Shown: positions 8,243 through 27,059 of the stretch, in pieces | Position numbering within the stretch: position 1 is the first letter of the stretch | Layout of the letters: every line of letters starts with the position of its first letter | Source: Promethearchaeum syntrophicum | GTDB lineage: Archaea > Asgardarchaeota > Lokiarchaeia > Sigyniarchaeales > Promethearchaeaceae | Direction: 5' to 3' | Assembly (NCBI RefSeq): GCF_008000775.2 | Contig: NZ_CP042905.2 | Location: forward strand, 3,300,001 to 3,332,000 | DNA length: 32,000 nucleotides | Notes under the pieces: generated by a model | What the model saw: the letters and a program-made list of their open reading frames with translations, nothing else | Told to the model about the DNA's origin: nothing | Database searches by the model: none | Position numbers and translations under genes: made by a program

Positions 8243-8764
8243 TTATGAATATGTATAAACAAAAAGATTCATATCACGAATAACTGCATTAGTACCCAAA
8301 CCTATAGCTTCAATACTAATAATATGTGGTCCAGCACTTAATCCTGTAGCTACATGCTGTGTTGATAGTTCGATTACGTGAGTAAAAATTGAAGTTACAA
8401 TACCATCTTCCTGTCTTCGTGAAGAATCTATAGCTGTATTATCTATAGCAATTTGTGCACCTGCCAAACCAAATCCATCGGCTGTCATTGCCCACTGGCC
8501 ACTAAATGAAATGTAGACTGATTCACCTTCTTCTACAATGATATTTATTTCACAATCTGGGACTTTCTCATAATCTAAAGCAGGAGTATAGTCCGTATCT
8601 CTACTAGCATACATTATTCTATTTATTGAATTTTCACCAACTTCATTTGAGCTACTACCTTGTATTGGGAGAATTCCAAAATACATAGTTAAACTCAAAC
8701 CTAGACTGATAATTGCAATCAGGACAGCAATTAACACTAAACCTTGATTATTATTTTTTCCCAT
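8243..8764 (-). CDS. N-terminally membrane-anchored or secreted protein, beta-rich ectodomain (hypothetical)
   Basis: 173-aa ORF. The N-terminus MGKNNNQG is followed by the hydrophobic helix LVLIAVLIAIISLGLSLTMYF. The remainder has alternating beta-strand-like patterns (VYISFSGQWAMT, AQIAIDNTAI, HIISIEAIG, NLFVYTYS). A jelly-roll fold is only a weak impression. Confidence 0.55.
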   Translation of the reverse strand: MGKNNNQGLVLIAVLIAIISLGLSLTMYFGILPIQGSSSNEVGENSINRIMYASRDTDYTPALDYEKVPDCEINIIVEEGESVYISFSGQWAMTADGFGLAGAQIAIDNTAIDSSRRQEDGIVTSIFTHVIELSTQHVATGLSAGPHIISIEAIGLGTNAVIRDMNLFVYTYS

Positions 8765-9067: not shown

Positions 9068-10744
9068 ATGACAAAATATGTGTTCGTAACCGGCGGTGTA
9101 ATGAGTGGTATAGGAAAAGGCGTTACAACCGCATCTATAGGCAAAATTTTCCAATTTCGTGGATTCAGAGTATCTGCTATAAAAATTGATCCTTACCTCA
9201 ATGTCGATCCTGGGACATTGAATCCGATAGAGCACGGAGAGTGTTTCATAACAGATGAAGCTTGGATGTTTAATCCAACTAATGATCAGAATAATCCATA
9301 TGTTTCAACGAAAATTGCAGAGTTAGATCAAGATTTTGGAACATATGAGAGATTCTTAGGTGATTTTATACATCCTTCACATAATATTACTAGTGGGCAG
9401 ATTTACTTTGAAACCATACTCCGCGAAAGAAAGGGAGATTATCTGGGAAAGACAGTTCAAATAATTCCACATTGTACTAATATGATTAAAGAAAGGATAG
9501 TTAGAATTGCGAAAAGCGAGGATTTAGATGTTTTAATTATAGAATGTGGAGGAACAGTCGGTGATGTTGAGTCAATTATTTTTCTGGAAGCTTTCCGTCA
9601 ACTTAAGTTAGAGTTACCCACAAACGATACGGTACTAATTCATGTTACAGTTGTTCCATATTCAAAAGCTGTTGGAGAACTAAAAAGTAAACCTACTCAA
9701 CATTCAGTAAAAGCGCTTCAAAGTGCAGGATTACAACCTGATTTTCTAATTTGTCGTTCAGAAATACCTATGGGTAAGGAGATAAAACGGAAAATTTCTT
9801 TATTTTCAAATGTTCAACCTCAATTTGTAATTTCAAACCCAGATATTCAATCAATTTACTCGCTACCTTTAATTTTTGAAGAGCAGAAATTAGGAGATTT
9901 AATCAGTGACATTTTTGACCTTAAACCCAGATTAGTAGAATTTAGTTCGGTTAACAATTATTCTGAATGGAAGAAAACCGCACAGTTGTTTATAAATAAA
10001 AATATAAATACCGTAAAAATTGGTATGCCCGGAAAATATACCGATAATAAAGATTCCTATGTGTCTATTAATGAGGCACTTAAGCATGCTTGTGCGCACG
10101 AGCAAGTTAATTTAGAAATTGTTTTCATCAATGTGGAAAAAGAAGGTTTCCAAGAAAATTTAAAAGAATGCGATGGAATATTGTTGACTCCTGGATTCGG
10201 AACGCGAGGTATTGAAGGTATGATTAGTTCTGCAGAAATTGCGATGGATGAAAAAATTCCGTATTTAGGCATATGTTTTGGAGCACAGCTCTTTTATGTA
10301 GCCTTTATGAGGCATATAATGGGAATTAAAAACGCACATTCTACCGAAATAGAACCCAATACACCTAATCCTGCAGTGAGTATGATGGATGAACAGCATA
10401 AAATTGTTAATTTAGGTGGAACAATGCGATTAGGAGCCCATAAAATAGTAATAAAGGAAGACACAAAACTTTTCAAAGCATATAATCAAAAGGAGATAAG
10501 AGAGAGATTTCGGCACAGATTTCATATTAATGAGAATTACATGACTTCTGAAACAGAACATAAGGGATTGAAAATATCCGCCTATGATGAAACTGGAAAA
10601 ATTGTAAATGCAATTGAATTATCTGATCCGGATCATTGGATGCTGGGAACGCAATTTCATCCTGAATTCACCAGCCGTCCTTACCGACCGAGTCCAATTT
10701 ATCTGGCTTTTATAAAAGCAATAAAGAAATACAAGAATCTTTAA
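9068..10744 (+). CDS. pyrG: CTP synthase
   Basis: 558-aa ORF. The N-terminus is YVFVTGGVMSGIGKG, with IDPYLNVDPGT and GGTVGDVES following. The glutaminase domain has the GICFGAQ nucleophile Cys and QFHPEF. Confidence 0.95.
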   Translation: MTKYVFVTGGVMSGIGKGVTTASIGKIFQFRGFRVSAIKIDPYLNVDPGTLNPIEHGECFITDEAWMFNPTNDQNNPYVSTKIAELDQDFGTYERFLGDFIHPSHNITSGQIYFETILRERKGDYLGKTVQIIPHCTNMIKERIVRIAKSEDLDVLIIECGGTVGDVESIIFLEAFRQLKLELPTNDTVLIHVTVVPYSKAVGELKSKPTQHSVKALQSAGLQPDFLICRSEIPMGKEIKRKISLFSNVQPQFVISNPDIQSIYSLPLIFEEQKLGDLISDIFDLKPRLVEFSSVNNYSEWKKTAQLFINKNINTVKIGMPGKYTDNKDSYVSINEALKHACAHEQVNLEIVFINVEKEGFQENLKECDGILLTPGFGTRGIEGMISSAEIAMDEKIPYLGICFGAQLFYVAFMRHIMGIKNAHSTEIEPNTPNPAVSMMDEQHKIVNLGGTMRLGAHKIVIKEDTKLFKAYNQKEIRERFRHRFHINENYMTSETEHKGLKISAYDETGKIVNAIELSDPDHWMLGTQFHPEFTSRPYRPSPIYLAFIKAIKKYKNL

Positions 10745-12987
10745 ATGTTTTCTGTTCCCTTTTCGATAATTTCTTTTAAAGTCATTATCGTAGTATCCGG
10801 GCTGTAAGTGTCAAATTCAAAGATTTTTGCAGCGTTTTTAAGGAAACTTTTCTGAATACGTTCCACAGAAAATTGATCGATGCCTAAATAACGTGTAGCC
10901 CAAGATTTTTTAGGTTTCATAATAATGACCATTATTTGTTTCTTGCCTATGTTATTTGCAATTTCATCTAACTCGTCTGAGATAATTTGAAATTCGTGTG
11001 ATGAAGTGGCATTCAAACCGGGATATTTCAGTGATATATTCGCACCCAAATCACTTAAAATTATGATAATAGGTAAATTGAACCCTTTAATCTTCTCTTG
11101 TTGAATCATCGTCAGTGTTTTCTTCAAAGCAGATGCAAGGGGAGTATAAGATGTAGCTTCAAGATTTTTAAGCTCAGTCAATCCTACAGAAAAAGAAACA
11201 GCAGGTCTTTGAAGTATGGTACTCTCTTTTCCTTGGAACGAAATCACAGAGATTTTATCTTTTTTTTTATAACCTTCTGCATGCACGCTCTGAATAATTT
11301 TAATTGTCTGATCCAAAGTTCGTCTCATCGAAGCACTTGCATCCACTATGAAATAGAGTGAAATTGGAGCTTTGACAACATTGATTTTTTCTTGTATATC
11401 ATCAATATTTAGATTTACAGCTAGGTTTGAATTATAAGATCTCTCTTGCAGAACAGTTTGTATAGCTTTTGTGTTATTAATAAAATGCGATTTAATTGAC
11501 GCATCAAACGCTATAGAATGGGGTTTTCCTCTGGGTTTTTGTGCATATATATATCTTCCTTTTGATTTAGTATTAAGACGAACCCTGGTTCCCCGCCCAG
11601 TATAGTTAACAATTTTTTGTTTCTTTTTTAAATATCGAAAAATTGGTGATACATCAAGGTTGATTGGTTTTTCTGTTCGATAAAATAGTAGATTGTCTGG
11701 ATCAATAATCCTTTTCTTTACATTGGTCTTTTTACTACTGGCTTTAAATCCATGAGAAAAATCTTCATCTGAATCAAAATTGGAATATCTATCTTGAGAT
11801 TTTCGATCTTTATCATCAACTTCTGGTAAATCTTCGTTTTCCTTATTTAATGGATTTTCTCGGTATTTTTCTTCTAAATCTGGAGAGGATTTAAAGGTAT
11901 TCATCATTTCTTTATCAGTTCCTTTATACAAAGTTGGATCTTCAAAAGATTTTGGAATTTTATGCCAGAGTTCTTCAAAAGTTGTTCCTAAATAATCATT
12001 GTTCAATTCGGGATTAATATGAGCGAGTTTATACTTAAAAACTAAATTGAGGGCTTGTTTTAAATCTTCTTTTTCAATCTTCGTAGAATTTCTGAAAGCC
12101 GCATGGGCTCGAGCACAATGAAGATAAGTAATTTCAGTCCTTTGGGATATTAATCCGAATTTTATAACAAGTTCTGAAGCAAAATTATAGATTTTGGGAG
12201 AAATTTTTATAGAAGATAGATTTTTTTTTGCAAATATTATATTTTCTTTGAGCTTTATTTGAAGAAGTTTGTAGTTTTCAATAAATTTTTGAGGATCGTC
12301 TTGAAATTCGATAACTCGGTTGGTAATTTCGGCACGTATACTGGGATCAATAGGTGCTTTGATTCCAATTTCAAGCCCCAACCGATCTGAAATCTGGGGA
12401 CGTAATTCACCCTCTTCAGGATTCATCGAGCCTACCAATATAAAAGAAGAGAGGTGAGTAATTGATATTCCTTCTCTTTCGATATGGTTAATCCCAGAAG
12501 CAGAAGCATCTAATAGGATATCGACTAGATGGTCTGGTAAAAGGTTTATTTCATCAATATACATTATGCCTCGATTTGCTTTAGCGAGTAACCCAGGTTG
12601 GAATTCTCTTTTCCCTTCCTTTATTATTCGTTCAATATCTAAAGAGCCTATTACCATTTCTTCGGTGGCACCTAGAGGCAAATTAACAAATGAAATGGGT
12701 TTCTTGATAGTTTTTTCAGGTTTTTTTTCCCCTTTTTCTTTACAATAATCACATAATTTTTCTGGATCTTCTAAATTGCATTGAAATGGACACCCTTCGT
12801 AAACTTCAATTTCAGGGAGTAATGCAACCAAGGAACGCGCAGCTGTACTTTTTCCTGTTCCCTGTTGTCCTGTAAGTAAAACACCACCAATCTTAGGATC
12901 TATCACATTTAAAATTAGAGCAAGCTTCATATCATCTTGGCCTAGTATCGCAGTAAATGGAAAGTTTTGAATCTTGATTTTTTTCAT
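10741..12987 (-). CDS. ChlI/BchI-type AAA+ ATPase fused to a C-terminal von Willebrand factor A domain
   Basis: 748-aa ORF. Residues 1 to about 340 are collinear with the Mg-chelatase I subunit: FPFTAILGQDDMKLALILNVIDPKIGGVLLTG, Walker A QQGTGKST, LPEIEVYEGCPFQC, Walker B MYIDEINLL, NPEEGELRPQISDRLGL. A charged linker follows, then a vWA domain with the MIDAS motif IVDASASM. The stop codon shares the palindrome TTAA with the pyrG stop. Confidence 0.85.
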   Translation of the reverse strand: MKKIKIQNFPFTAILGQDDMKLALILNVIDPKIGGVLLTGQQGTGKSTAARSLVALLPEIEVYEGCPFQCNLEDPEKLCDYCKEKGEKKPEKTIKKPISFVNLPLGATEEMVIGSLDIERIIKEGKREFQPGLLAKANRGIMYIDEINLLPDHLVDILLDASASGINHIEREGISITHLSSFILVGSMNPEEGELRPQISDRLGLEIGIKAPIDPSIRAEITNRVIEFQDDPQKFIENYKLLQIKLKENIIFAKKNLSSIKISPKIYNFASELVIKFGLISQRTEITYLHCARAHAAFRNSTKIEKEDLKQALNLVFKYKLAHINPELNNDYLGTTFEELWHKIPKSFEDPTLYKGTDKEMMNTFKSSPDLEEKYRENPLNKENEDLPEVDDKDRKSQDRYSNFDSDEDFSHGFKASSKKTNVKKRIIDPDNLLFYRTEKPINLDVSPIFRYLKKKQKIVNYTGRGTRVRLNTKSKGRYIYAQKPRGKPHSIAFDASIKSHFINNTKAIQTVLQERSYNSNLAVNLNIDDIQEKINVVKAPISLYFIVDASASMRRTLDQTIKIIQSVHAEGYKKKDKISVISFQGKESTILQRPAVSFSVGLTELKNLEATSYTPLASALKKTLTMIQQEKIKGFNLPIIIILSDLGANISLKYPGLNATSSHEFQIISDELDEIANNIGKKQIMVIIMKPKKSWATRYLGIDQFSVERIQKSFLKNAAKIFEFDTYSPDTTIMTLKEIIEKGTENI

Positions 12988-13064
12988 TATTAAAAGTATT
13001 AATCATCAATAATTTGAAAATTATTTGAAAACTGATTAAAAAAAGTTTATGTAGGTTGAATTAA

Positions 13065-13694
13065 TCAATTATCGAAAAATTCGAAGGGGAAAAGTTTTCT
13101 TACATTACAATATAGATAATTTTCTGATAAATTCTCAACTTGAACTGTAAAATTACTGCTCTCTGGAGTATTGTCTGCGCTTTTAGTAATATTTAAAACT
13201 TGGACCCAAAAGTAGAGAATAGTACCATCAGCATAACCGAGAATTTCATCACCAGTGTCATCATCGAATCCATCTTGAGGATCAACATCAGTTTCTTTAT
13301 CGATTACGAATTCAAGGATTTCTCCAATCTCACTATCAAGGAGTTCATAATAGAATCCATTAATTAAACTACCTTTTGTAACTTCTGTAATAAAATTATT
13401 AGGGGGCTTGGACTCTTCGTCAGGTTCCTCACTTGTATCAAGATCACCAATGTCATCAATTCTCCATAGTTTATAATGAAGTTCGGCCGTATCTCCATCT
13501 TCAATATATAATTTATCTCCGTGTCCATTAGTGGATTCTGGTAAAAGAACTGCGAGAAGAACAACCCCAGTAATAGAGATCACAAAAATAAAACCCATAG
13601 CGAAATATTTTATTGGTATCTTCTGTTCATTGTATTGTTTCTTTCGAACGTAAAATTCCTTTTTCGCATGTTTAGGATTTCTTTTAGGGGACAC
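13065..13694 (-). CDS. Membrane-anchored FKBP-type PPIase-like protein with an acidic insert
   Basis: 209-aa ORF with a GTG start. A basic N-tail (SPKRNPKHAKKEFYVRKK) precedes one TM helix (FAMGFIFVISITGVVLLAVLL). The ectodomain follows FKBP order: EDGDTAELHYKLW ... KGSLINGFYYELLDSEIGEILEFVI ... GTILYFWVQVLNI. The family call is by eye only. Confidence 0.45.
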   Translation of the reverse strand: MSPKRNPKHAKKEFYVRKKQYNEQKIPIKYFAMGFIFVISITGVVLLAVLLPESTNGHGDKLYIEDGDTAELHYKLWRIDDIGDLDTSEEPDEESKPPNNFITEVTKGSLINGFYYELLDSEIGEILEFVIDKETDVDPQDGFDDDTGDEILGYADGTILYFWVQVLNITKSADNTPESSNFTVQVENLSENYLYCNVRKLFPFEFFDN

Positions 13695-13789
13695 GATCTC
13701 TGTATAATTAGCGGAATTAAAAAATTTTTTAGATCGTTTTTTTTTACATCAATATTATGAAATGTTTCTTTGCTACATAATTCAACAAA

Positions 13790-14419
13790 TTAAATATATA
13801 AATGAGATGTTGAATTTTTTAGTTCATCCTTCTCTATTGTTGATTTTAATCTCATTTGCAATTTGGGGCTTATATTTTTCATAAAGTAATCTATAGCAAA
13901 TATAATCGAAAAATAACTGAGCTTAAAAGATTCGAAGTCAGCTGAACATGGAACATCAGCTTGAGCCCATACTGACTTATTTTCAGGATCTAAAGAGTAA
14001 ACAACAGAGTTTAAAAGGAAATTACCTTTTAAAATTTCGGAAAACAAGTTTAGAAGTGCTTGTTGATTCAATTTTCCAGGTTCAATCTCGTAAATAGAAG
14101 TTTTTATAAGAATCCACTCAGTGGAGATAACGACGTGACTTAAAAATGTAAATTCTTCATATTCAAAGGGTATTGTAATAATTAGTTTTTCTACATCCAC
14201 TTTCATATCAACTATGCCAATATCCGAGAGATATTTCTCTATTTTAGAAAGATTTTCCTCCATTTTTTCTCTCTCCTCCTTAGTCAAGAGTTTTTGAAGG
14301 TTTTTATCTAGAGCTTTTGCAGGATATGGAGCAATTTTATCTTGCGAATCTTCTTTAATAGATTTAGGGAGATCAATTTTGCTCGTCTTTTTTTTTGTCG
14401 GGGATTTTTTCTTTCCCAT
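13790..14419 (-). CDS. YbjN-like (T3SS-chaperone-like fold) protein with a lysine-rich N-terminal tail
   Basis: ORF with an ATG at 14419; the track begins 2 codons earlier at a TTG. The N-tail is GKKKSPTKKKTSK and a short coiled coil follows. The pattern SHVVISTEWILIKTSIYEI...QALLNLFSEILKGNFLLNSVVYSLDPENKSVWAQADVP resembles the YbjN family. This is a low-certainty call by pattern. Confidence 0.4.
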   Translation of the reverse strand: MGKKKSPTKKKTSKIDLPKSIKEDSQDKIAPYPAKALDKNLQKLLTKEEREKMEENLSKIEKYLSDIGIVDMKVDVEKLIITIPFEYEEFTFLSHVVISTEWILIKTSIYEIEPGKLNQQALLNLFSEILKGNFLLNSVVYSLDPENKSVWAQADVPCSADFESFKLSYFSIIFAIDYFMKNISPKLQMRLKSTIEKDELKNSTSHLYI

Positions 14420-14556
14420 AACCAATATAATATCGTAATTTTAGTTTTTATATGTTTTTAATTTCAACCTAATGGATTGATAGGAAATTTTTAAACCTCA
14501 ATTATATAGATTACATAAACGAGTTCGAAAAAAGAATACATGAGGCATACTATTAA

Positions 14557-16461
14557 TTGAGCAATTCTTCCGATTATTTTAGAAACAAAGTGTGGTATAT
14601 CATTAATACAATTCAAGCTAACCAACTTTTTGTGCATTCTGCAAACTTAAAAGTGCGTTATTCTGAAAATCAAATGCTCTTTGTAAGTAAGACAAGAAGA
14701 AGTAAGAAGAAAAGTTCAAAAAAAAAAAAAACAAGAAAGTTAATCACTAAAAATCTTCCTGAAATACTCACAATTTGTGTTTTAAATACATTAATACCTA
14801 ACTCAGCAATGCTATTAGTTGGAGGACATGGGGGTGGAAAAACCTCAATCGTAAAATATCTTGGTAGAATGTTTACAGGAATGACATTAGATGAAGCAGA
14901 GGAATGCATAATTCGTGGACACCCTCAATTAACGGAAGAAAAAATAATTGCTACATTAAATATTAAGAAATTGATGAAAGATGGGGAGGAAGAAGTCATA
15001 TGGAGAACCTTTTCTTCAAATTTTTGGAAAATTATTGATGAAGTTAATCGCTGTAGCCCCTATACACAAAATATCTTACTATCACTGCTCGCTGAAGGTA
15101 AAATCAAATATTATGATAGTGTATTAAACGTTTCAAAATATTGTTTGTTTGGCACCTTAAATCCCAATGATGTAGGTACATTTGAGATGTCAGCACCATT
15201 TTTAGACCGGTTTGGAATTTCCGTCCCAATTTCAATGCCAAAATCACAAGATCTCGCTGTAATTTTAGAAAGTCAAGATGAAAAACTTGGAGGATATGAT
15301 GAATTAATTCAAGTGCCTCAAGTTCTATCGGAAGAACAACTATTAAGTATTTGGTATGAGGTTAGCACAATTATCTGCTCAAAAGAAGCAGAAAATTTCA
15401 TTCATGCGATTATTAGAGAATATACATTATGTGAACGAGTAGATAAAGGGAATTCAGATTATTTAAAACCCAGCTCAGGACTTTGTAGCGGATGCCATTT
15501 TAACGTTCCCAACAAAGTACCTTGTAGCAATTCGGATTCGATTTTATCTGTAAGAGTTGCTAAAGATTTACTCCGTTATTCTCGCGCATTAACATGGTTA
15601 TTGGGGTTAAAAGAAGTTTCGGTAAACATTGTATTAACTGTTGCCCCTTATGTGATTTCTCATCGAGTAATCTATCTCGAACGAGCATTAAACAAGGACC
15701 CTTATTGGGGATCAAAATATGAATTTACAAAAAACATTCTAGAGATGGTATTGAAACGCTTTCACAATCGCGTAGAAGCATATGATATTATAGACAAATT
15801 CAGAGAAGGAAAGGGTAATGAAACGGAAAGGGAGAAATTGGAGCTGATGGCTAGAAATGATCTCATAGTACGTATAGATCTACTTCCTTTAGCAGAATCT
15901 CTGTCAAATCCCGAGTATATTGATATTGTAAATGAAATAAATGAATCAACCCAACAAAAAAATATAACACAAATCTCAACTTTAAGAAGAAGATTACTTC
16001 AAGAAATGGATTTTCCTAATCGAGGCGAACTAATCGCACGGTTAAATGGGATTTTACGTGTCCTAACTTTGAATACTTATAATTCCTCAATGGAACTTTG
16101 GAACTCAATAAGATTTACTATAGACGGTTTAATTCCTCAATTTTCAGCAAAATTAAAAGAAACTACACTGAATAGGGGAACTTATCGATTACGCACTGAA
16201 GATTTAGATATGGAAATTAATGTAACCGGTATTCATGAAAGCGATATTGTTAATTTTAGTTTTTATGGTGGCGATAGTGCTGAAAATTTGAAAGAAGCTA
16301 TTGAAAAGCAGCACAAAAACGCTTTTAAATCAATGGATGATTTAATCGAGGAATCTAAAATTGCTCGCGAAAAGGTTGAAAACGAATTTGGTTTATCAAA
16401 TATTGAAGTTTCTGAGAATATTAAAGAAGAAGAATATTTTGATGATGAAATTTATGACTGA
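14557..16461 (+). CDS. MoxR-family AAA+ ATPase with a basic N-tail, a Cys-cluster insert and a long C-terminal extension
   Basis: 634-aa ORF. The track start is a TTG at 14557, and the GTG at 14590 or the ATG at 14673 are alternatives. Motifs are Walker A GGHGGGKT, Walker B IIDEVNR, PYTQNILLSLLAEGKI, GTLNPNDVGTFEMSAPFLDRF and the lid SVRVAKDLLRYSRALTWLLG...VISHRV. A CSGCHFNVPNKVPC cluster precedes the lid. About 250 aa follow the AAA+ module. Confidence 0.85.
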   Translation: MSNSSDYFRNKVWYIINTIQANQLFVHSANLKVRYSENQMLFVSKTRRSKKKSSKKKKTRKLITKNLPEILTICVLNTLIPNSAMLLVGGHGGGKTSIVKYLGRMFTGMTLDEAEECIIRGHPQLTEEKIIATLNIKKLMKDGEEEVIWRTFSSNFWKIIDEVNRCSPYTQNILLSLLAEGKIKYYDSVLNVSKYCLFGTLNPNDVGTFEMSAPFLDRFGISVPISMPKSQDLAVILESQDEKLGGYDELIQVPQVLSEEQLLSIWYEVSTIICSKEAENFIHAIIREYTLCERVDKGNSDYLKPSSGLCSGCHFNVPNKVPCSNSDSILSVRVAKDLLRYSRALTWLLGLKEVSVNIVLTVAPYVISHRVIYLERALNKDPYWGSKYEFTKNILEMVLKRFHNRVEAYDIIDKFREGKGNETEREKLELMARNDLIVRIDLLPLAESLSNPEYIDIVNEINESTQQKNITQISTLRRRLLQEMDFPNRGELIARLNGILRVLTLNTYNSSMELWNSIRFTIDGLIPQFSAKLKETTLNRGTYRLRTEDLDMEINVTGIHESDIVNFSFYGGDSAENLKEAIEKQHKNAFKSMDDLIEESKIAREKVENEFGLSNIEVSENIKEEEYFDDEIYD

Positions 16462-18319
16462 AACGGCTGAAACAAAGCGGAGATATTATAGGAAAAAAAA
16501 ATCAAAATCAAAAAAAAAAACTAGTAGAAAGAAAAGTAAATCAAATGAAACGAAAAGAAATTTCGATATTTTAAAAAAAAAAAAAATTTTTACAAAAGAA
16601 GAAAAAAAAATACTTGATATTGGAAAAACGGCTTATAATAAGGCGCTAACTCATTATTTTATACCTTCACTTCCTGATCCGGATTTAATTTTCGATTATT
16701 CTAAAACAAAAGGATTTTTTATTGATACTTTCAGTTGGCGTGTAACCTTAAATCTCGCGAATACTCCTTTTTTGCATTTGGATCAAGAGTTCTTAGATTA
16801 TTTCTTTTCTTTAAGTCTTCATGAAATAGCTCATTATGTATATTGCCCATATGACAATCTAACTAATTTGCGCTTACTAGCGGCAGCTATAAAAGGAGGA
16901 GTTTCAAAGAACCATGCTCCAATGATTGTAAATATTTTTTCAGATCTTTTAATCGATAACCGAACACACAGAAAATTTAAAGATTTAATGAATTGGGAAC
17001 TGCAAATTACAGCGGAACAAGCTCTTCAAGAAAGCAAAAGGAATAAACTTAGCAAATTATGGAAATTACTGGTAAGATGCTATGAAATTCTTTGGGATAT
17101 TGAAATATTACCTAAAACAATGATATCGGATGAATTAAATAAAATAGCTGGAAAAACTTGTGATATAATTCTAAAAAATTATGAGAATGAAAGCCTTTGG
17201 GAAAAAAAGGTTCAAAAAATTGCTAAAATTCTGAAAGATCTTTTAAAAGAGGAATGCAAATTAGCCAATACTACGGAAAATATGGAAGGGAAAAATAGAT
17301 CCAAAAACGGTGATAAACAAGGAAATCCTTTTTCCATTCCGAATGATGTTTTGGAAACATTTGGGGATATTTCGGAAGTTAAAAACATTGATATGATAAA
17401 AGGTGGAGATTCAGGTAATAAAAAATCAAGAGGACCGAATGAGATATCTGAAATAGAAAATGCAGCTGAAGAACTTGCGCAGGAAATAGATTGCAAAACT
17501 TTTTTGGATGTTCTAAATCTTTATGGATTGGGTTCTCTTAATGAAAAATTGGGAATTTGGTATAGGAGTAGAGCAAAAAATTTACTTAGATTTAATTATT
17601 ATGAAAGTAAACCAAGTGGAGCAATCCCCTTATACCCAGAAACTTGGAGAATTGGAGATTCGTTAGAAGAACTAGATCCCGTTCAAACACTTTTAGCAAG
17701 TCCTTCAATAATTCCAAATATAACTACTCGTAAGTGGTCCCATCAAGAAGGTCCAAGTCATAGAATATCAAAAGAGCTTCCGGATATGATGATTGTAATA
17801 GACAGTTCAGGTTCGATGGATTGGGACTTTAAACGAAAAAAAATTTCTGGAAGATATCACATCTCCCTTTTAGCTGCATTCGCAGCCCTTCACTATGCAA
17901 TTAATAATGGAAGTCATGTTTCAGCAATCAATTTTTCAAATCGTGTCAAAAAAACTACATGGACAAACAATTTTTATAAAATAGAGCAAATTTTATTGAG
18001 TTATATTGGCCAAGGAACTGTTTTACCTACAAAAACTATGATACAAATGGCAAAATCGGCCGATCGTCCATCACTTATTATTTTGATATCTGATTTAGAA
18101 CTTTATAATTGGGAAAACGCACTAAAAACATTTAAAATCTTAATGCAAAGGGGGCATACTCTTATCGCTTTTTTTATTGATGGAGATGAAGAATTATTAG
18201 AACAAGAGGATTTTCAAGAGCTTATTGCAAGAGGTGCGAAATTTTATTGTGTTCACAAAATGAAAGATCTTATCGGACTTGTTATTTCTGAGGTGCAAGA
18301 AGTCTATACTAATCTATAA
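16442..18319 (+). CDS. HExxH metallopeptidase-like plus vWA domain protein (DUF2201-like partner of MoxR)
   Basis: In-frame ATGs lie at 16442, 16445 and 16454. The last gives ATGACTGA, overlapping the MoxR stop (16459-16461). A lysine-rich tail (RKKKSKSKKKTSRKKSK) comes first, followed by LSLHEIAHYVYCPYD (HExxH) and NIFSDLLIDN. The C-terminal vWA domain has the MIDAS motif IVIDSSGSMDW. Confidence 0.8.
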   Translation: MMKFMTETAETKRRYYRKKKSKSKKKTSRKKSKSNETKRNFDILKKKKIFTKEEKKILDIGKTAYNKALTHYFIPSLPDPDLIFDYSKTKGFFIDTFSWRVTLNLANTPFLHLDQEFLDYFFSLSLHEIAHYVYCPYDNLTNLRLLAAAIKGGVSKNHAPMIVNIFSDLLIDNRTHRKFKDLMNWELQITAEQALQESKRNKLSKLWKLLVRCYEILWDIEILPKTMISDELNKIAGKTCDIILKNYENESLWEKKVQKIAKILKDLLKEECKLANTTENMEGKNRSKNGDKQGNPFSIPNDVLETFGDISEVKNIDMIKGGDSGNKKSRGPNEISEIENAAEELAQEIDCKTFLDVLNLYGLGSLNEKLGIWYRSRAKNLLRFNYYESKPSGAIPLYPETWRIGDSLEELDPVQTLLASPSIIPNITTRKWSHQEGPSHRISKELPDMMIVIDSSGSMDWDFKRKKISGRYHISLLAAFAALHYAINNGSHVSAINFSNRVKKTTWTNNFYKIEQILLSYIGQGTVLPTKTMIQMAKSADRPSLIILISDLELYNWENALKTFKILMQRGHTLIAFFIDGDEELLEQEDFQELIARGAKFYCVHKMKDLIGLVISEVQEVYTNL

Positions 18320-18357: not shown

Positions 18358-19044
18358 ATGGTATTAACTGAAGAAAAAGAAAAAGATTATCAAGAAATTG
18401 TATTAAATGGTGCTAAAAAGATTTTTGAGGGTAAGCTCGTTGAATTTGGAGAAGGAAATGTATCAATTCGAGTGAAAAAACAGGATGAAATGTTTATTAC
18501 CCCTACACAAAATGATTATTCTACATTAAAATCACAAGAAATTGTACATATTCAGTTTGATGGAATTCAATTAAGTAAGGGACGTCCTGCATCATCTGAA
18601 TACCGTTTACATACCTCAATTTACCGTGCGCGTCCGAAAGCAAATTGTATCATTCATACTCATTCAGTCTATGCAAGCATGTTAGCAACAGTTAAACAAA
18701 AAATTCCCGTCTTATTAGAGGAAATGATTTTCTTCTTGGGAGGTGAAATAGAAGTTGCTGATTATACGCCGGCGGGAACCCAAGAAATTGGAGAAGTTGC
18801 CCTAAAAGCAATGGGTGATAAAAATGCAGTTCTGTTAACAAATCATGGAGTTTTAGTATGCGGAAGAGATATGAAAACTGCAGTTAAAAATGCAAAGTTA
18901 GTTGAAAAATTATCTAAAATATATTGGGGGGCTACTCAAATTGGAAAAATTCAAACAGTGAAACCAGAACAATGGCAAAAATGGTTGGATTTATTTAAAG
19001 CAATGCATAGCACAGTTCCTCGAAAAAAAAAAGTAAGCAAATGA
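18358..19044 (+). CDS. Class II aldolase/adducin-family protein (L-fuculose-phosphate aldolase / MtnB-like)
   Basis: 228-aa ORF. Motifs are GEGNVSIRV, PSSEYRLHTSIY, CIIHTHSVYASMLA and TNHGVLVCGRDMKTA. A GGTGAT Shine-Dalgarno sequence lies 5 nt upstream. The gene begins 38 nt after the vWA gene. Confidence 0.85.
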   Translation: MVLTEEKEKDYQEIVLNGAKKIFEGKLVEFGEGNVSIRVKKQDEMFITPTQNDYSTLKSQEIVHIQFDGIQLSKGRPASSEYRLHTSIYRARPKANCIIHTHSVYASMLATVKQKIPVLLEEMIFFLGGEIEVADYTPAGTQEIGEVALKAMGDKNAVLLTNHGVLVCGRDMKTAVKNAKLVEKLSKIYWGATQIGKIQTVKPEQWQKWLDLFKAMHSTVPRKKKVSK

Positions 19045-19184: not shown

Positions 19185-19757
19185 ATGCAGCAATTAAATA
19201 TACCAAATTTTGAACAGAAGATGCATTTAGAAGCCATACTTTTTTTATCAAACCAAGGGATATCAATTGCTGATCTGTCAAAGAAGATGAATCTTTCTCC
19301 TAAAACGATTAGAAAATTAGCCACAGAATTAATAGAAGATTATCAAAATCAATCAGATTCTTTGGAAATTTATGAAAATGAAGAAATAATTTATATGAAA
19401 GTTAAACCAAAAATTATGCGTGACCCGAAATTAGCGAAATTCCTTCATTCCCCGAAATTAAAACCAGGAGAAATAAAAACTTTAGGCTATATTGCAATCA
19501 ATCAACCAATAGAACAACAAGATATTATCGATTTTGTTGGTATCAGTGCAAAACGCTCCATTCAACAATTATTTAAACAAAATTTTATTGCAATATCAAA
19601 AATTCAAAATAAATATTTAGACGAAAATGGGAAAGAAAGAAAAAAAACAACTAAAGAATTTAAAACAACACAATTTTTTGCAGATTATTTCGGAGTAGAG
19701 AATAATATTAATGAAATTCAAGAAAAATTAAATGATTCGATATCAAAACTTTCATGA
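19185..19757 (+). CDS. scpB: Segregation and condensation protein B
   Basis: 190-aa ORF. The first winged helix has LEAILFLSNQGISIADLSKKM. The second has LGYIAINQPIEQQDIIDFVGISAKRSIQQL. The C-terminal part has TTQFFADYFGV. This order matches ScpB. Confidence 0.8.
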   Translation: MQQLNIPNFEQKMHLEAILFLSNQGISIADLSKKMNLSPKTIRKLATELIEDYQNQSDSLEIYENEEIIYMKVKPKIMRDPKLAKFLHSPKLKPGEIKTLGYIAINQPIEQQDIIDFVGISAKRSIQQLFKQNFIAISKIQNKYLDENGKERKKTTKEFKTTQFFADYFGVENNINEIQEKLNDSISKLS

Positions 19758-19806
19758 AATAAATTTAAAATTAATCTTTTAAATAAGTCTTGTTCAATTT
19801 AATTTG

Positions 19807-20772
19807 ATGGAAAAAATTTATAATAAAAAAAAAACAATATCGAAGGGAGAATTTCTAAAAAAATCTAAAGAAATTAATCCACTTTTAAAAAAAATACAGA
19901 AAAACATTAACGTTGATGCAGGTTATGGAAGTTTTTTTATTACATCCACGAATTTTAAACTGTTTAATAGAGAATGGGTTCCAAAAAATATTACTCCATC
20001 ATCAAAGGTGATTATTTGCATTCATGGAATGCATTCTCATGGAGAAAAATTTGTTTTACTTGCAGATAAATTTGTAAATTTTAATTGGGTAACAATTGCC
20101 GTTGATTTAAGAGGACATGGGTTGAGTTGGGATAAATTTGAAGAGCGGGGAGATATTGAAAATTATTCTCTTTGGATTTCAGATTTAAAAGAATTCTTCA
20201 AATATATTTCTGAAAAATATAAAAATCTACCACTACACATCATTTCTGAAAGCATGGGGAGTGCGATTTCAATATTAGTGGCAATAAAAAATCCTTCTCT
20301 ATTAAAATCTTTAATATTACTCTCCCCTGCTTTAAAACCTTGGGCTGTTACTGAAATTAGTTTAATTCAAAAAGCATTTACATATGGATTGATTGGAGGA
20401 GCAGAGAAGCAAATTATTTTAAACAAAGCTAAAGGTAGATTTTCTACTAATTCTGAAGAATACATACAATATCAATTAAATGATCCATTCCGTTTAGATA
20501 AAGTGTCCCCACGGTATTATTTTCAAATAATTAAGATGATTCATCAATTAAAAGCATTAGATTTTAATAATTTTTATCCTACCTTAATTTTTTTTGGGGG
20601 TTCAGACCATATTATAGATTTTACAGGGCTTAAGGAATTAATTTATCGTTTGAAAATTCGTGATAAGGGTTTACACTACATCCCGAAAGCATCTCATGAA
20701 TTATTAACTGACCATCAGGCAATAAAATATAATCTCTATAAAAAAATAATATCTTGGATTCAAATGCATTAA
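19807..20772 (+). CDS. Alpha/beta-fold hydrolase, lysophospholipase/monoacylglycerol-lipase-like
   Basis: The ATG is at 19807; the track starts one codon earlier at a TTG. Motifs are CIHGMHSHGEKF, DLRGHGLS, the nucleophile elbow IISESMGSA (Ser present), GGSDHIID and the His region KASHELL. It is a paralogue of the gene at 12-1013. Confidence 0.8.
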   Translation: MEKIYNKKKTISKGEFLKKSKEINPLLKKIQKNINVDAGYGSFFITSTNFKLFNREWVPKNITPSSKVIICIHGMHSHGEKFVLLADKFVNFNWVTIAVDLRGHGLSWDKFEERGDIENYSLWISDLKEFFKYISEKYKNLPLHIISESMGSAISILVAIKNPSLLKSLILLSPALKPWAVTEISLIQKAFTYGLIGGAEKQIILNKAKGRFSTNSEEYIQYQLNDPFRLDKVSPRYYFQIIKMIHQLKALDFNNFYPTLIFFGGSDHIIDFTGLKELIYRLKIRDKGLHYIPKASHELLTDHQAIKYNLYKKIISWIQMH

Positions 20773-23465: not shown

Positions 23466-26400
23466 TTAAGCAGATTGAACAGCACTATTTTTACTTTCTA
23501 ATTGCTTCAATACGTTTCTAATTGACAAATTAATAACAGAAGTTACTCCCTCAATATTTGAAACCCCTAGTAGATGATCAACTCTAGCCATTGTAACATC
23601 TCTATGGGTTATTATAATAAATTGAGATTTTTCCGACAATTCTTTGACCATATCTGCAACTAAAGCTGCATTAACATCATCTAGCGCCGCATCAATTTCA
23701 TCAAGGATGTAATAAGGAGAAGGAACATGCATTTGAATACCCAGAATTAAAGCAATAATTGTTAAAGTTTTCTCTCCTCCACTCATTGCTTGAGTTAAGC
23801 ACCATTTCTTTTCTCCTGGTCGTGCCAAAATCAGAACACCTCCTTCAAATGGATCTTCTAAGTTTTCTAATTCTAACTTTGCTTCTCCGCCTTTGGACAG
23901 TCTGGAAAATATATATCCGAAATTTTTATTGATGGCATTAAATGTGTTTAGAAATACCTTTTTCTTTTCTTGTTCAAGAGATTCAATGAAATCCAAAATA
24001 GCTTCTCGTTCTTTTATGACACGCTCGTTTTTTTCTCCGAGTTCTTTGAATCTTTCTTCAATGTCAATATATTTATCTATTGCTCTAAGGTTTACAGCTC
24101 CTAATTGATTTTTTTGAAGCTCAATTTTCACAATTTCTTTTTGATGATTTGATTCTGATATTTTCAACAAATCTTCAGAAACTTCAATCTCTGGATTAAT
24201 AAAACATCCCCATTCGAGTATTTTTTGTTTGAACTCTGTGGTTTTTATTTCAAATGTATTTAGATTCATTTTAAGTGGGTAAACTTCATTTCCAATCTGC
24301 CCTACTTTTAATTGATTCTCTGACATGTTCATGGTTAAATTTTTCTTTTCATTCATTAATACAGTCAGTGCTTTACTTTTATGACTAATTTTCTCTTCTA
24401 GAACTTTGACTTTTACTTCATAGTCTTTTAAATCGTTTGAAAGTTCTTGAATTGAATTTGTAGTTTCTGCAATATCATGATTTCTTTGATTTAGTTGCGT
24501 TTGAGCTGTTGCTCTATTAGAACTAATAGTTTCGGTCAGTGAAGTGGATTTTTTGGTAAATTCAATTTCAATTTGAGTTGCTTCTTTTTGTAGATTTTTA
24601 AGCTGATTTTCATTTTGTTTTAATTGTTGTTTTATTGAAGATTCTTCTGATGAATCTAATTTTTCTTGAATTTCATTTTCTTTATTAATTAGATTAGTAA
24701 GAATTTTCTTGATTTTATCAATACCTTGCTCTAATTTTTCTTTTTGACTACTTTGACCATCAATTTCTTTGATAATCTCTTCAATTTCATTCTCATTATT
24801 ACTAATTGTCATTAACAATTGCTCAATACTAGCTTTACATACAGCGATTTGTTCGCTAATTTCTTTTGTCTTATTTGCGCCAGTTATTTTCAATTTATAC
24901 AAACGCGATATTTCTACACGATGAGCATTTATTTTAATGTCTAATTCACTGATTTGCCTATGGATTATTTGATGTGCACTTTCTAATTCTTTAATTTTTT
25001 GTTGGTCATTATTGTTATCAAAACCTAATCCTTTAGATTTCGTTTTCTGTCCACCAGTCATTAAATTCGACCCTTCCACTACATCTCCTTCTAATGTGAC
25101 TCTTTTAGCAGGAATTTTTAAACCACGGGCAGTTGGAATATCTTCAACAATAACACATCTTCCAAAGACATATTCAAAAGCATCTCTATATTTTTCAGAA
25201 AATTCGATCAAATCTACAGCCCGACCAATTATTTTTGAATCTTCAGGTAATCGAGAGATAAAAGGTTTATAATGAATGTTTTCAAGTGGGATAAAGGTGG
25301 CTCTCCCTAATTTGTTCTTTTTAAGATGATTTATACACTTTTCAGCAACTATTTGGTTTTCTACTACAATGAAATTGAAGCGATTTCCAGCAGCATATTC
25401 CATTGCAGTGTAATATTTTTTTGAGGTTGAACCTAACTGCGAAATTGTTCCAAAAATTCCTTTAATTTTCCCGGTTTTACTTAAATTTAATATTGCACGT
25501 TGAGCCCTGTTATTTGAAGTTATATGGTTAAGTATTTTTACCTTTGATTTTAATTCAAAAAGTTCTTTTTGAGTTTTATTTGAAATTGAGGTCATTTCTT
25601 TACGGTTAATATTCCACCCTTCGATTTCTTTTTCCATTCGGTTTATTTTTTTCTCAATTCCGTTTTTTGAGAAGTCTATATCCTCCAACCCAAGTTTTTG
25701 TTTTCTTTCAATCTTTAGATTCTCAATTTTAATTTTTAATCCAGCTAAAACATTGTGACTATCGAATATTTTTTTCTCAAGTTTTGATTTAGACTCGGTT
25801 AAACCTTCAATTTTCTGTTCAATTAACCGTAGATCACCAGAACACTGATTTTTCTCCTCTTTAATTTGATCAATTTCGATTTGTAATCTTTTTGAATTTT
25901 CTTTTATTTGAATGTATTCAACATCAATTGTTGACAGTTTTTTTTCTAAATCTTGAATAATTTGTGTTTTTTCATTGATTTGCGCAATAATTTTTTGTTT
26001 CTTGGCTTCTATCTTCTTAATTTCTTTTTTTAAATTTTCTTCTTGTTCATTTATTTGGTTTAGCCGTTCTTGAAGTTCCAATTGTTCTTGCTGGTAAGTT
26101 TTTAGGTTCTTTTTAGCATATGATAAAGATGTTTTTAACTCTGTCACTTTATTTTTCAAATCTTTAAGCTTGTTTGTCATTTGAAGTAATTCAGAATCCT
26201 GCAATTTTTGAATTTTTGGCTCCAATTCTTCTATCTTTTGCTTAAGGGTCTCAATTTCCTCTTTTAATTGCACTTCTTTTTTTTCAATTTCAGCAATTTT
26301 AATGTTGACCTCTATTTTTTCTTCAGCCATTTTTTCAATTTTTTCCTCAGACGTTTGGATCTTCACTTTATATAGTGCATTTGTTCTGATTTTCTCTTGG

Positions 26401-27059
26401 GACGTTAATTCAAGATATTTCTCAGCATTAATTTTCTCTTTTTTTAAATCTTCCAATTGAAGGTAAACTTCATTAAGCAATAATGCAATCTGTCCGAGAT
26501 TTGTCTGAACCTGCATTAATTCATCTTCAGCTGATATCTTTTTATCATTATATGACGCGATCCCTGCAATATCTTCAATTAACTCGCGACGTTCATTTGA
26601 ATTCATATTAATTAAGCGGAATAATTCACCTTGCATAATCATATTTGATGAGTTTGGAAGTATTCCGGATAAATCTAACAAGTTTATTATAGCTTTACGG
26701 GTTGATCTCTTTCCATTGAGTTTATATATTCCATTACCTTTACGATCTATTTTTCTAAGGATGCTAATTTCTGGTAGATCCAAAGAAAATGAACGATCGG
26801 CATTATCAAAGAGAATTTCGACCGAAGCCGTATCTGATGGTCCCATTCCATGACCACCGTTTGAGATCAAATCTTTAATATTATTAGCTCGAAGAGATTT
26901 TGCAGAAAGAGCCCCCAAAACGAAAACAAAAGCATCTATTATATTAGATTTCCCCGAACCATTTGCTCCAACTATAGCGCTGAAACCCTCATCAAAATTT
27001 ATTACAGTTCTCTTTCTAAAACTCTTAAAACCGATACAAATCATTTTTTTAATAGCCAC
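23466..27059 (-). CDS. smc: Structural maintenance of chromosomes protein (SMC)
   Basis: 1197-aa ORF with a GTG start, giving MAIKKMICIGFKSF, as in SMC N-termini. Motifs are Walker A GANGSGKSN, long coiled-coil arms, the hinge GIFGTISQLG...YAAGNRFNFIVVEN, the signature MSGGEKT and Walker B YYILDEIDAALD. Confidence 0.95.
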   Translation of the reverse strand: MAIKKMICIGFKSFRKRTVINFDEGFSAIVGANGSGKSNIIDAFVFVLGALSAKSLRANNIKDLISNGGHGMGPSDTASVEILFDNADRSFSLDLPEISILRKIDRKGNGIYKLNGKRSTRKAIINLLDLSGILPNSSNMIMQGELFRLINMNSNERRELIEDIAGIASYNDKKISAEDELMQVQTNLGQIALLLNEVYLQLEDLKKEKINAEKYLELTSQEKIRTNALYKVKIQTSEEKIEKMAEEKIEVNIKIAEIEKKEVQLKEEIETLKQKIEELEPKIQKLQDSELLQMTNKLKDLKNKVTELKTSLSYAKKNLKTYQQEQLELQERLNQINEQEENLKKEIKKIEAKKQKIIAQINEKTQIIQDLEKKLSTIDVEYIQIKENSKRLQIEIDQIKEEKNQCSGDLRLIEQKIEGLTESKSKLEKKIFDSHNVLAGLKIKIENLKIERKQKLGLEDIDFSKNGIEKKINRMEKEIEGWNINRKEMTSISNKTQKELFELKSKVKILNHITSNNRAQRAILNLSKTGKIKGIFGTISQLGSTSKKYYTAMEYAAGNRFNFIVVENQIVAEKCINHLKKNKLGRATFIPLENIHYKPFISRLPEDSKIIGRAVDLIEFSEKYRDAFEYVFGRCVIVEDIPTARGLKIPAKRVTLEGDVVEGSNLMTGGQKTKSKGLGFDNNNDQQKIKELESAHQIIHRQISELDIKINAHRVEISRLYKLKITGANKTKEISEQIAVCKASIEQLLMTISNNENEIEEIIKEIDGQSSQKEKLEQGIDKIKKILTNLINKENEIQEKLDSSEESSIKQQLKQNENQLKNLQKEATQIEIEFTKKSTSLTETISSNRATAQTQLNQRNHDIAETTNSIQELSNDLKDYEVKVKVLEEKISHKSKALTVLMNEKKNLTMNMSENQLKVGQIGNEVYPLKMNLNTFEIKTTEFKQKILEWGCFINPEIEVSEDLLKISESNHQKEIVKIELQKNQLGAVNLRAIDKYIDIEERFKELGEKNERVIKEREAILDFIESLEQEKKKVFLNTFNAINKNFGYIFSRLSKGGEAKLELENLEDPFEGGVLILARPGEKKWCLTQAMSGGEKTLTIIALILGIQMHVPSPYYILDEIDAALDDVNAALVADMVKELSEKSQFIIITHRDVTMARVDHLLGVSNIEGVTSVINLSIRNVLKQLESKNSAVQSA

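Follow-up and report, generated by a model that had tools for sequence, protein, structure and literature searches.

Five neighbouring genes of the archaeon Promethearchaeum syntrophicum bring together two different combinations of AAA+ ATPases and domains of the von Willebrand factor A (vWA) type. They lie in a 32,000-nucleotide stretch of contig NZ_CP042905.2 (positions 3,300,001 to 3,332,000 of the forward strand), referred to below as the window. The genes encode a ChlI-type ATPase fused to a vWA domain (P1, or ChlI-vWA), a putative membrane-anchored FKBP-like protein (p2), a protein with a predicted chaperone fold, a basic tail and a C-terminus resembling the hydrophobic-Tyr-X (HbYX) motif (p3), a MoxR-type AAA+ ATPase (P4, hereafter MoxR), and a protein that carries an HExxH motif and a vWA domain (P5). 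All five open reading frames (ORFs) had been called, at the positions given here, in an earlier interpretation made from the nucleotide sequence alone (the sequence-only reading). The region probably comprises three independent units, namely MoxR with P5, the ChlI-vWA fusion, and p2 with p3, that stand side by side through inherited chromosome order in the Lokiarchaeales. Among the five genes, the only conserved module appears to be that of MoxR and P5, which looks like a two-gene operon maintained across the Asgard archaea.

The MoxR gene (14557-16461, plus strand, 634 amino acids) is overlapped by the P5 gene (16442 or 16454 to 18319, plus strand, 625 or 621 amino acids), as had been noticed before, and the junction as read from the sequence spans 8 nucleotides at 16454-16461 (ATGACTGA). 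Genomes, one per species, were scanned with a MoxR alignment and the best 80 loci were taken, 77 of them informative for P5. These best 80 loci are all from Promethearchaeota, and all named protein matches come from archaea that are either Asgard or unclassified. The MoxR orthologues of Loki-, Thor-, Hod-, Hermod- and Odinarchaeia are 52-56% identical. Of the 77 informative loci, 67 have P5 as the gene immediately downstream of MoxR, 8 have it at a greater distance downstream with the strand unchanged, and 2 lack it. The gap between the two genes in other Asgards is typically about 17 nucleotides or less, and that between the HAD hydrolase gene and MoxR is about 127 nucleotides. The neighbours of the pair in other Asgard classes, with labels read from their sequences, include an acetyl-CoA-synthetase-like protein, GatC, a small CxxC protein, the HAD hydrolase, peroxiredoxin-like and PAC2-like proteins, and a dUTPase. 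Most Asgards outside the Lokiarchaeales (L011-L081) have two of these encoded upstream of MoxR and in the same orientation: the CxxC protein of about 117 amino acids (cluster 2, 63 loci) and the HAD hydrolase (cluster 8, 41 loci). As adjacent, conserved genes whose vWA partner has a complete metal ion-dependent adhesion site (MIDAS), MoxR and P5 would by their sequences qualify as a MoxR-vWA pair. Literature searches on Asgard MoxR with vWA, or on MoxR with DUF2201, found nothing. In several Lokiarchaeial lineages (L005, L007, L009, L045, L051, L054, L055, L061, L073 and L169) the pair is followed immediately or almost immediately by the genes for ScpB and SMC, an arrangement that is probably plain synteny.

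The sequence-only reading had viewed the five genes as one machine, in which two motors share a client and the genes are co-regulated from the divergent region between p3 and MoxR; in this model p3 acts in the cytosol as chaperone or adaptor, and p2 is the extracytoplasmic foldase. The divergent region is present (14420 or 14426 to 14556), and its length of 131-137 bp, which varies with the start codon chosen for p3, agrees with the 131 bp first given. Conservation of the neighbourhood, which the sequence-only reading had put forward as a check, holds in part: about nine genomes at the level of the Lokiarchaeales keep the block (L002-L009, with MoxR identities of 62% or more, and L169, the complete genome of L. 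ossiferum), p3 is 62-91% identical within this clade and always occupies the same position, and the fold of p3 is that of a chaperone. However, co-occurrence of all five genes is limited to these relatives, in which glnA, pyrG, scpB and SMC are also collinear with the window. Because the block is part of a syntenic stretch of at least 20 kb that extends to unrelated housekeeping genes, its conservation carries no independent weight. Beyond the clade the members occur in different contexts, with about 70 more distant Asgard loci retaining MoxR-P5 without ChlI-vWA or p3, and with relatives of ChlI-vWA and of p3 found elsewhere without MoxR-P5. Oligo-T runs and AT-rich stretches between p3, p2 and ChlI-vWA also speak against a common machine, as they give a plausible if faint hint that these three genes are transcribed separately. 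A single five-gene system is thus very unlikely.

Several observations nevertheless weigh against the interpretation as independent units. The five genes have stayed together although the MoxR orthologues of the clade have fallen to 62-68% identity, and the right flank of the block has been rearranged, with the aldolase gene found only in Promethearchaeum and genes inserted beside scpB in L. ossiferum; a conserved block next to a rearranged flank makes selection for adjacency possible. Beyond the five-gene clade, five further loci (L051, L054, L055, L061 and L073) have p2 upstream of MoxR, all of them lacking ChlI-vWA and p3, with three or four genes separating p2 from MoxR in three of the five. 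The contexts of p3 outside the clade are taken from contigs of 1-6 kb. As to P5, its N-terminal domain matched no peptidase family or fold, the missing fold match being explained by the vWA domain, which dominated the Foldseek search of the whole chain.

There is strong sequence support for placing the window ATPase in the MoxR/AAA_5 clade of AAA+ ATPases, and the MoxR-type call of the sequence-only reading is borne out. The protein scores 56 bits against Pfam AAA_5 (cut-off 22) and 24 bits against AAA_3, which is below the cut-off of 27; AAA_3 matches are precomputed for most orthologues. Walker A, Walker B and the arginine finger are intact, and the segments GGHGGGKT, IIDEVNR and LDRF are invariant among orthologues. 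The closest solved structure is that of a MoxR protein (2r44, E=2e-10). An affinity with midasin or dynein was also considered and ruled out, the profile search at E up to 10 returning only 2r44 and BchI/ChlI. The AAA+ core and the lid are separated by an invariant cluster of cysteine and histidine residues (C292, C310, C313, H314 and C323; window 15430-15525), which looks like a zinc-binding insert absent from canonical MoxR proteins. A C-terminal extension of about 230 amino acids is conserved among orthologues. The protein also contains a polybasic insert (amino acids 47-61; window 14695-14739), which is present in some orthologues and absent from those of Thor-, Hod- and Hermodarchaeia.

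P5 is 100% identical to a Promethearchaeum syntrophicum protein. Its N-terminus is polybasic and is followed by a largely helical domain of about 330 amino acids, where the HExxH motif lies; the C-terminal part is a vWA domain that has a MIDAS. The polybasic tract covers amino acids 8-22 (window 16475-16519), and a short basic N-terminus is found in most P5 orthologues. In 42 Asgard sequences H123, E124, H127, P132, Y133, D134, N160, D164 and D168 are invariant, as are the residues D450, S452, S454, T522 and D547 that complete the MIDAS (DxSxS, T, D), in accord with the HExxH-plus-vWA assignment made before. VWA_2 matches all 18 of 18 orthologues examined. The N-terminal region of about 330 amino acids matches no Pfam family at E up to 1 among these 18 orthologues; neither PF13203 (DUF2201_N, a model that the sequence-only reading had named for a check) nor PF09967 (DUF2201) matched any of them. 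In the AlphaFold2 model (predicted local distance difference test, pLDDT, 79) a small beta-hairpin, the helix that bears HExxH and a bundle of helices come before the vWA domain. In it the HExxH motif sits on a predicted helix (residues 110-129), and the invariant D134, D164 and D168 are candidate third metal ligands. Foldseek comparison of the whole protein with the PDB recovered vWA domains only (among them Rpn10, TFIIH p44, the MIDAS domain of Mdn1, and NorD, 9qhd_G), and a profile search of the PDB gave only one vWA-domain protein plus spurious weak matches.

MoxR-clade ATPases, the chelatase sub-clade included, are described as partners of peptide-binding vWA co-chaperones (PMC7159879). 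What is seen directly in the region is gene structure, motifs, folds, and phyletic and synteny patterns; an oligomeric state, a mode of substrate capture, a peptidase activity and partners are proposed by analogy. MoxR would form a hexameric ring that drives conformational work on P5, in effect pulling on it, and the MIDAS of the P5 vWA domain would hold an acidic residue of a client protein. The HExxH domain may cut the client as a metallopeptidase of the zincin type, or else be a metal site that loads it. Overall the pair would mature or remodel some protein complex, and no client gene is linked to it. A second possibility is that MoxR-P5 acts as a chaperone for the insertion of metal cofactors, as in CoxD/CoxE, NorQ/NorD or CbbQ/CbbO, and that the HExxH motif handles metal without cleaving peptides. 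These systems share the pairing of an AAA+ ATPase with a MIDAS protein (PMC7159879), NorD is among the structural matches of P5, and no peptidase family was detected for the P5 N-terminal domain. The invariant glutamate of the HExxH motif is, on the other hand, typical of a catalytic base rather than of a pure set of metal ligands, and the conserved neighbours (GatC, dUTPase, HAD hydrolase and the peroxiredoxin-like protein) do not include a gene for a cofactor enzyme. Metal insertion is regarded as unlikely.

MoxR-P5 resembles RavA-ViaA, NorQ-NorD, CbbQ-CbbO and CoxD-CoxE in that a MoxR-clade gene stands immediately upstream of a gene for a MIDAS vWA protein and the motifs of both are intact. 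In contrast to pairs of the RavA-ViaA type, the window MoxR is about twice the usual length, with its invariant Cys/His cluster and long C-terminal extension, P5 has an invariant HExxH domain that falls outside Pfam, there is no linked client gene, and the 80 best genome matches and all named protein matches are to Asgard or unclassified archaea. Bacterial proteins of the COG3864 type, which combine a DUF2201_N putative metallopeptidase with a DUF2201 vWA-like domain, also pair with MoxR ATPases. P5 is like these in having an N-terminal HExxH motif, a C-terminal vWA domain and a gene beside MoxR, and unlike them in that its orthologues match only Pfam families of the vWA type. What sets MoxR-P5 apart, as a variant, from the known pairs is its long MoxR with a Cys/His cluster, an HExxH domain that is unclassified and a distribution apparently restricted to Asgards.

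With its MoxR-vWA pair the locus could also be read as one of the vWA-MoxR ternary systems that act against viruses or in conflict. PADLOC, however, returned nothing for MoxR, P5, p2 or p3 and only weak generic AAA+ matches for ChlI-vWA, and neither the window nor the related loci encode VMAP, iSTAND, FtsH or a beta-propeller protein as a third component. The pair is moreover highly conserved in a stable housekeeping neighbourhood, unlike the mobile and patchy loci of defence systems. A role in defence is scarcely credible on these grounds (lack of PADLOC support, lack of a third component, housekeeping-like conservation) and was rejected.

The second ATPase of the window, the ChlI-vWA fusion (10741-12987, minus strand, 748 amino acids), has a linker that joins a ChlI/BchI-type AAA+ module to a ChlD-type vWA domain containing a MIDAS. 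The N-terminus matches ChlI in the PDB at E=3e-88 and the C-terminus matches the vWA domain of BchD at 3e-7. Scores are 363 bits against BchI-ChlI and 42 bits against Pfam Mg_chelatase (cut-off 20.3). The NCBIfam model TIGR02442, "putative cobaltochelatase", is collinear with the protein over residues 9-675 at 547 bits, below its equivalog cut-off of 779. Across seven orthologues, neither the Walker motifs nor the MIDAS sequence DASAS shows any variation. The fusion of ChlI and vWA recognized in the sequence-only reading thus stands, and sequence comparison strongly supports a class I chelatase-type motor that belongs, as a divergent representative, to a known family. P1 has in common with the class I chelatase subunits ChlI/ChlD (BchI/BchD) and with TIGR02442 the ChlI AAA+ module and the ChlD-type vWA domain, and differs from TIGR02442 fusions by its score below the equivalog cut-off and by the absence of CobN/ChlH from the window and from the 10 kb around eight orthologous loci. 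It is most likely a self-contained motor that unites the functions of ChlI and ChlD in one chain, and its partner, whether a CobN-like subunit or something else, would be encoded elsewhere. The literature search on a Prometheoarchaeum chelatase found nothing.

Relatives of ChlI-vWA outside the five-gene clade were obtained from metagenome contigs scanned with a ChlI-vWA alignment. The nearest orthologues (L087 and L082) are 42-45% identical and lie in DNA of about 31% GC. In both, an ATP-grasp_3 gene follows 30-45 bp downstream (L087:12239-13486 and L082:2265-3506), and in L087 three JAB/MPN genes lie upstream; p2, p3 and MoxR are absent from the vicinity of either orthologue. The ATP-grasp and JAB genes may represent a different partnership of ChlI-vWA. 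Among more distant relatives (31-37% identity), CobN adjoins in 30 of 80 loci, and genes for FecCD-type, periplasmic-binding and ABC transporter proteins are also found alongside.

The two small proteins appear to be lineage-restricted, and nothing was seen that ties either of them to either motor. The p2 gene (13065-13694, minus strand) encodes 209 amino acids, in which a basic N-terminus bearing a conserved NPK motif is combined with a single transmembrane helix and a domain that weakly resembles FKBP. The FKBP assignment of the sequence-only reading survives in a weakened form: p2 itself scores 14.9 bits against FKBP_C, under the cut-off of 21.1, but 5 of 13 orthologues match the family, the best at 4.4e-5. 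Like FKBP-type peptidyl-prolyl isomerases, p2 shows weak similarity to FKBP_C, a segment of the form ...I.GF..ELLG..G... and a terminal beta-strand; unlike them, it falls below the Pfam cut-off, is membrane-anchored and carries an acidic DxDxDG insert. This insert, a DxDxDGxDDxTG loop at about amino acids 132-148 (window 13250-13300) of the FKBP-like domain, resembles in sequence a calcium-binding motif, and one p2 orthologue has weak EF-hand matches.

The p3 gene (13790-14419 or 13790-14425, minus strand, 209 or 211 amino acids depending on the start codon) encodes a Lys-rich disordered N-terminal tail, a core with the fold of type III secretion chaperones and YbjN, and a conserved C-terminal tail. 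The protein is 100% identical to DSAG12_03500 of Promethearchaeum syntrophicum, and the UniRef name of the identical protein begins "Bacterial sensory tran...". Its AlphaFold2 model has a pLDDT of 74 overall and 80-93 across most of the core, in which the elements are arranged alpha-beta3-alpha-beta2-alpha. Foldseek matches in the PDB (CesT, ExsC, STM2138, AmyR of the YbjN family, 2plg and 4h5b) have a probability of 1.0 and E-values from 4e-6 to 1e-3, so that the model places p3 in the type III secretion chaperone/YbjN fold. The resemblance to YbjN claimed earlier is thereby upheld at the level of fold, but not at that of family: neither p3 nor any of 24 close homologues matches Pfam YbjN (PF10722). 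When 1.84 billion representative proteins were searched with a p3 profile, short relatives from archaea were found, and one of them (P0253) scores 26.6 bits against the Pfam YbjN cut-off of 22, an indirect link of p3 to the family. The core fold is thus shared with the YbjN/type III secretion chaperone superfamily (CesT, ExsC, AmyR), from which p3 differs in its Lys-rich disordered N-terminal tail, its Hb-Y-X-type C-terminus and the missing Pfam YbjN match. Relatives at 30-50% identity are found in four unrelated neighbourhoods.

The C-terminus of p3 reads ...SHLYI (window 13790-13810) and belongs to a tail of low pLDDT that is predicted to be disordered. An ending of the form [L/F/M/I]-Y-I is kept in 23 of 24 aligned homologues, the remaining one being truncated, and in 6 of the 7 distant relatives (30-50% identity) with sequences inspected, P0248 diverging at its C-terminus. 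HbYX is a C-terminal hydrophobic-Tyr-X motif by which proteasome activators dock on the alpha-ring of the 20S proteasome (PMC12352868), and the p3 tail fits this motif, a similarity of sequence that may serve as a lead. It can be built into a bolder proposal, which is decidedly improbable as a whole. MoxR-P5 would then be a near-universal Asgard housekeeping machine, consisting of a zinc-cluster motor and an in-trans MIDAS adaptor with an unclassified metallopeptidase, that matures or processes a core complex of the cell; p3 would have been recruited to it in the Lokiarchaeales, its HbYX-type tail leading to the 20S proteasome.

The sequence-only reading had described the two small proteins, p2 and p3, as basic-tailed. 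Their N-termini contain 7 Lys or Arg residues per 15, and because three other ORFs of the window equal this density the tails do not distinguish them. The polybasic maximum of the window, 11 Lys or Arg per 15 residues, is reached in MoxR (amino acids 47-61) and P5 (amino acids 8-22), and all ORFs other than these two have at most 7.

Eukaryotes have their closest known relatives in the Asgard archaea, and this kinship lends interest to those of their conserved genes that have no assigned function. With the tempting five-gene "system" set aside, what is isolated is a testable two-gene module of MoxR and an HExxH-vWA protein, carried by two cultured species, P. syntrophicum and L. ossiferum. Attention is also drawn to a motor of the ChlI/ChlD type with no CobN nearby, and to a chaperone-fold protein, p3, whose tail is of a proteasome-docking type.

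The surroundings of the five genes agree with the housekeeping flanks described in the sequence-only reading. On one side lies pyrG (9068-10744), which is convergent with the ChlI-vWA gene, the 3' ends sharing 4 nucleotides (10741-10744). On the other are genes for a class II aldolase (18358-19044) and ScpB (19185-19757), and the window also holds SMC (23466-27059). The observation that no substrate gene is nearby was likewise confirmed, with no CobN/ChlH, RuBisCO, Nor or gas-vesicle gene in the 25 of 27 window ORFs of at least 100 amino acids that were scanned with profiles (the two left out encode 155 and 189 amino acids). Scans of the window for Rfam families and tRNAs were empty, and the GC content is about 30% throughout. 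The sequence of the window is matched identically by a Logan contig of run DRR199588. Between glnA and pyrG an ORF of 173 amino acids (8243-8764, minus strand) with a hydrophobic N-terminal segment (MGKNNNQGLVLIAVLIAIISLGL) has no Pfam match and no counterpart in related loci, save in a contig identical to the window. Two genes for S33-type alpha/beta hydrolases (Hydrolase_4), at 12-1013 and 19804-20772, may be paralogues.

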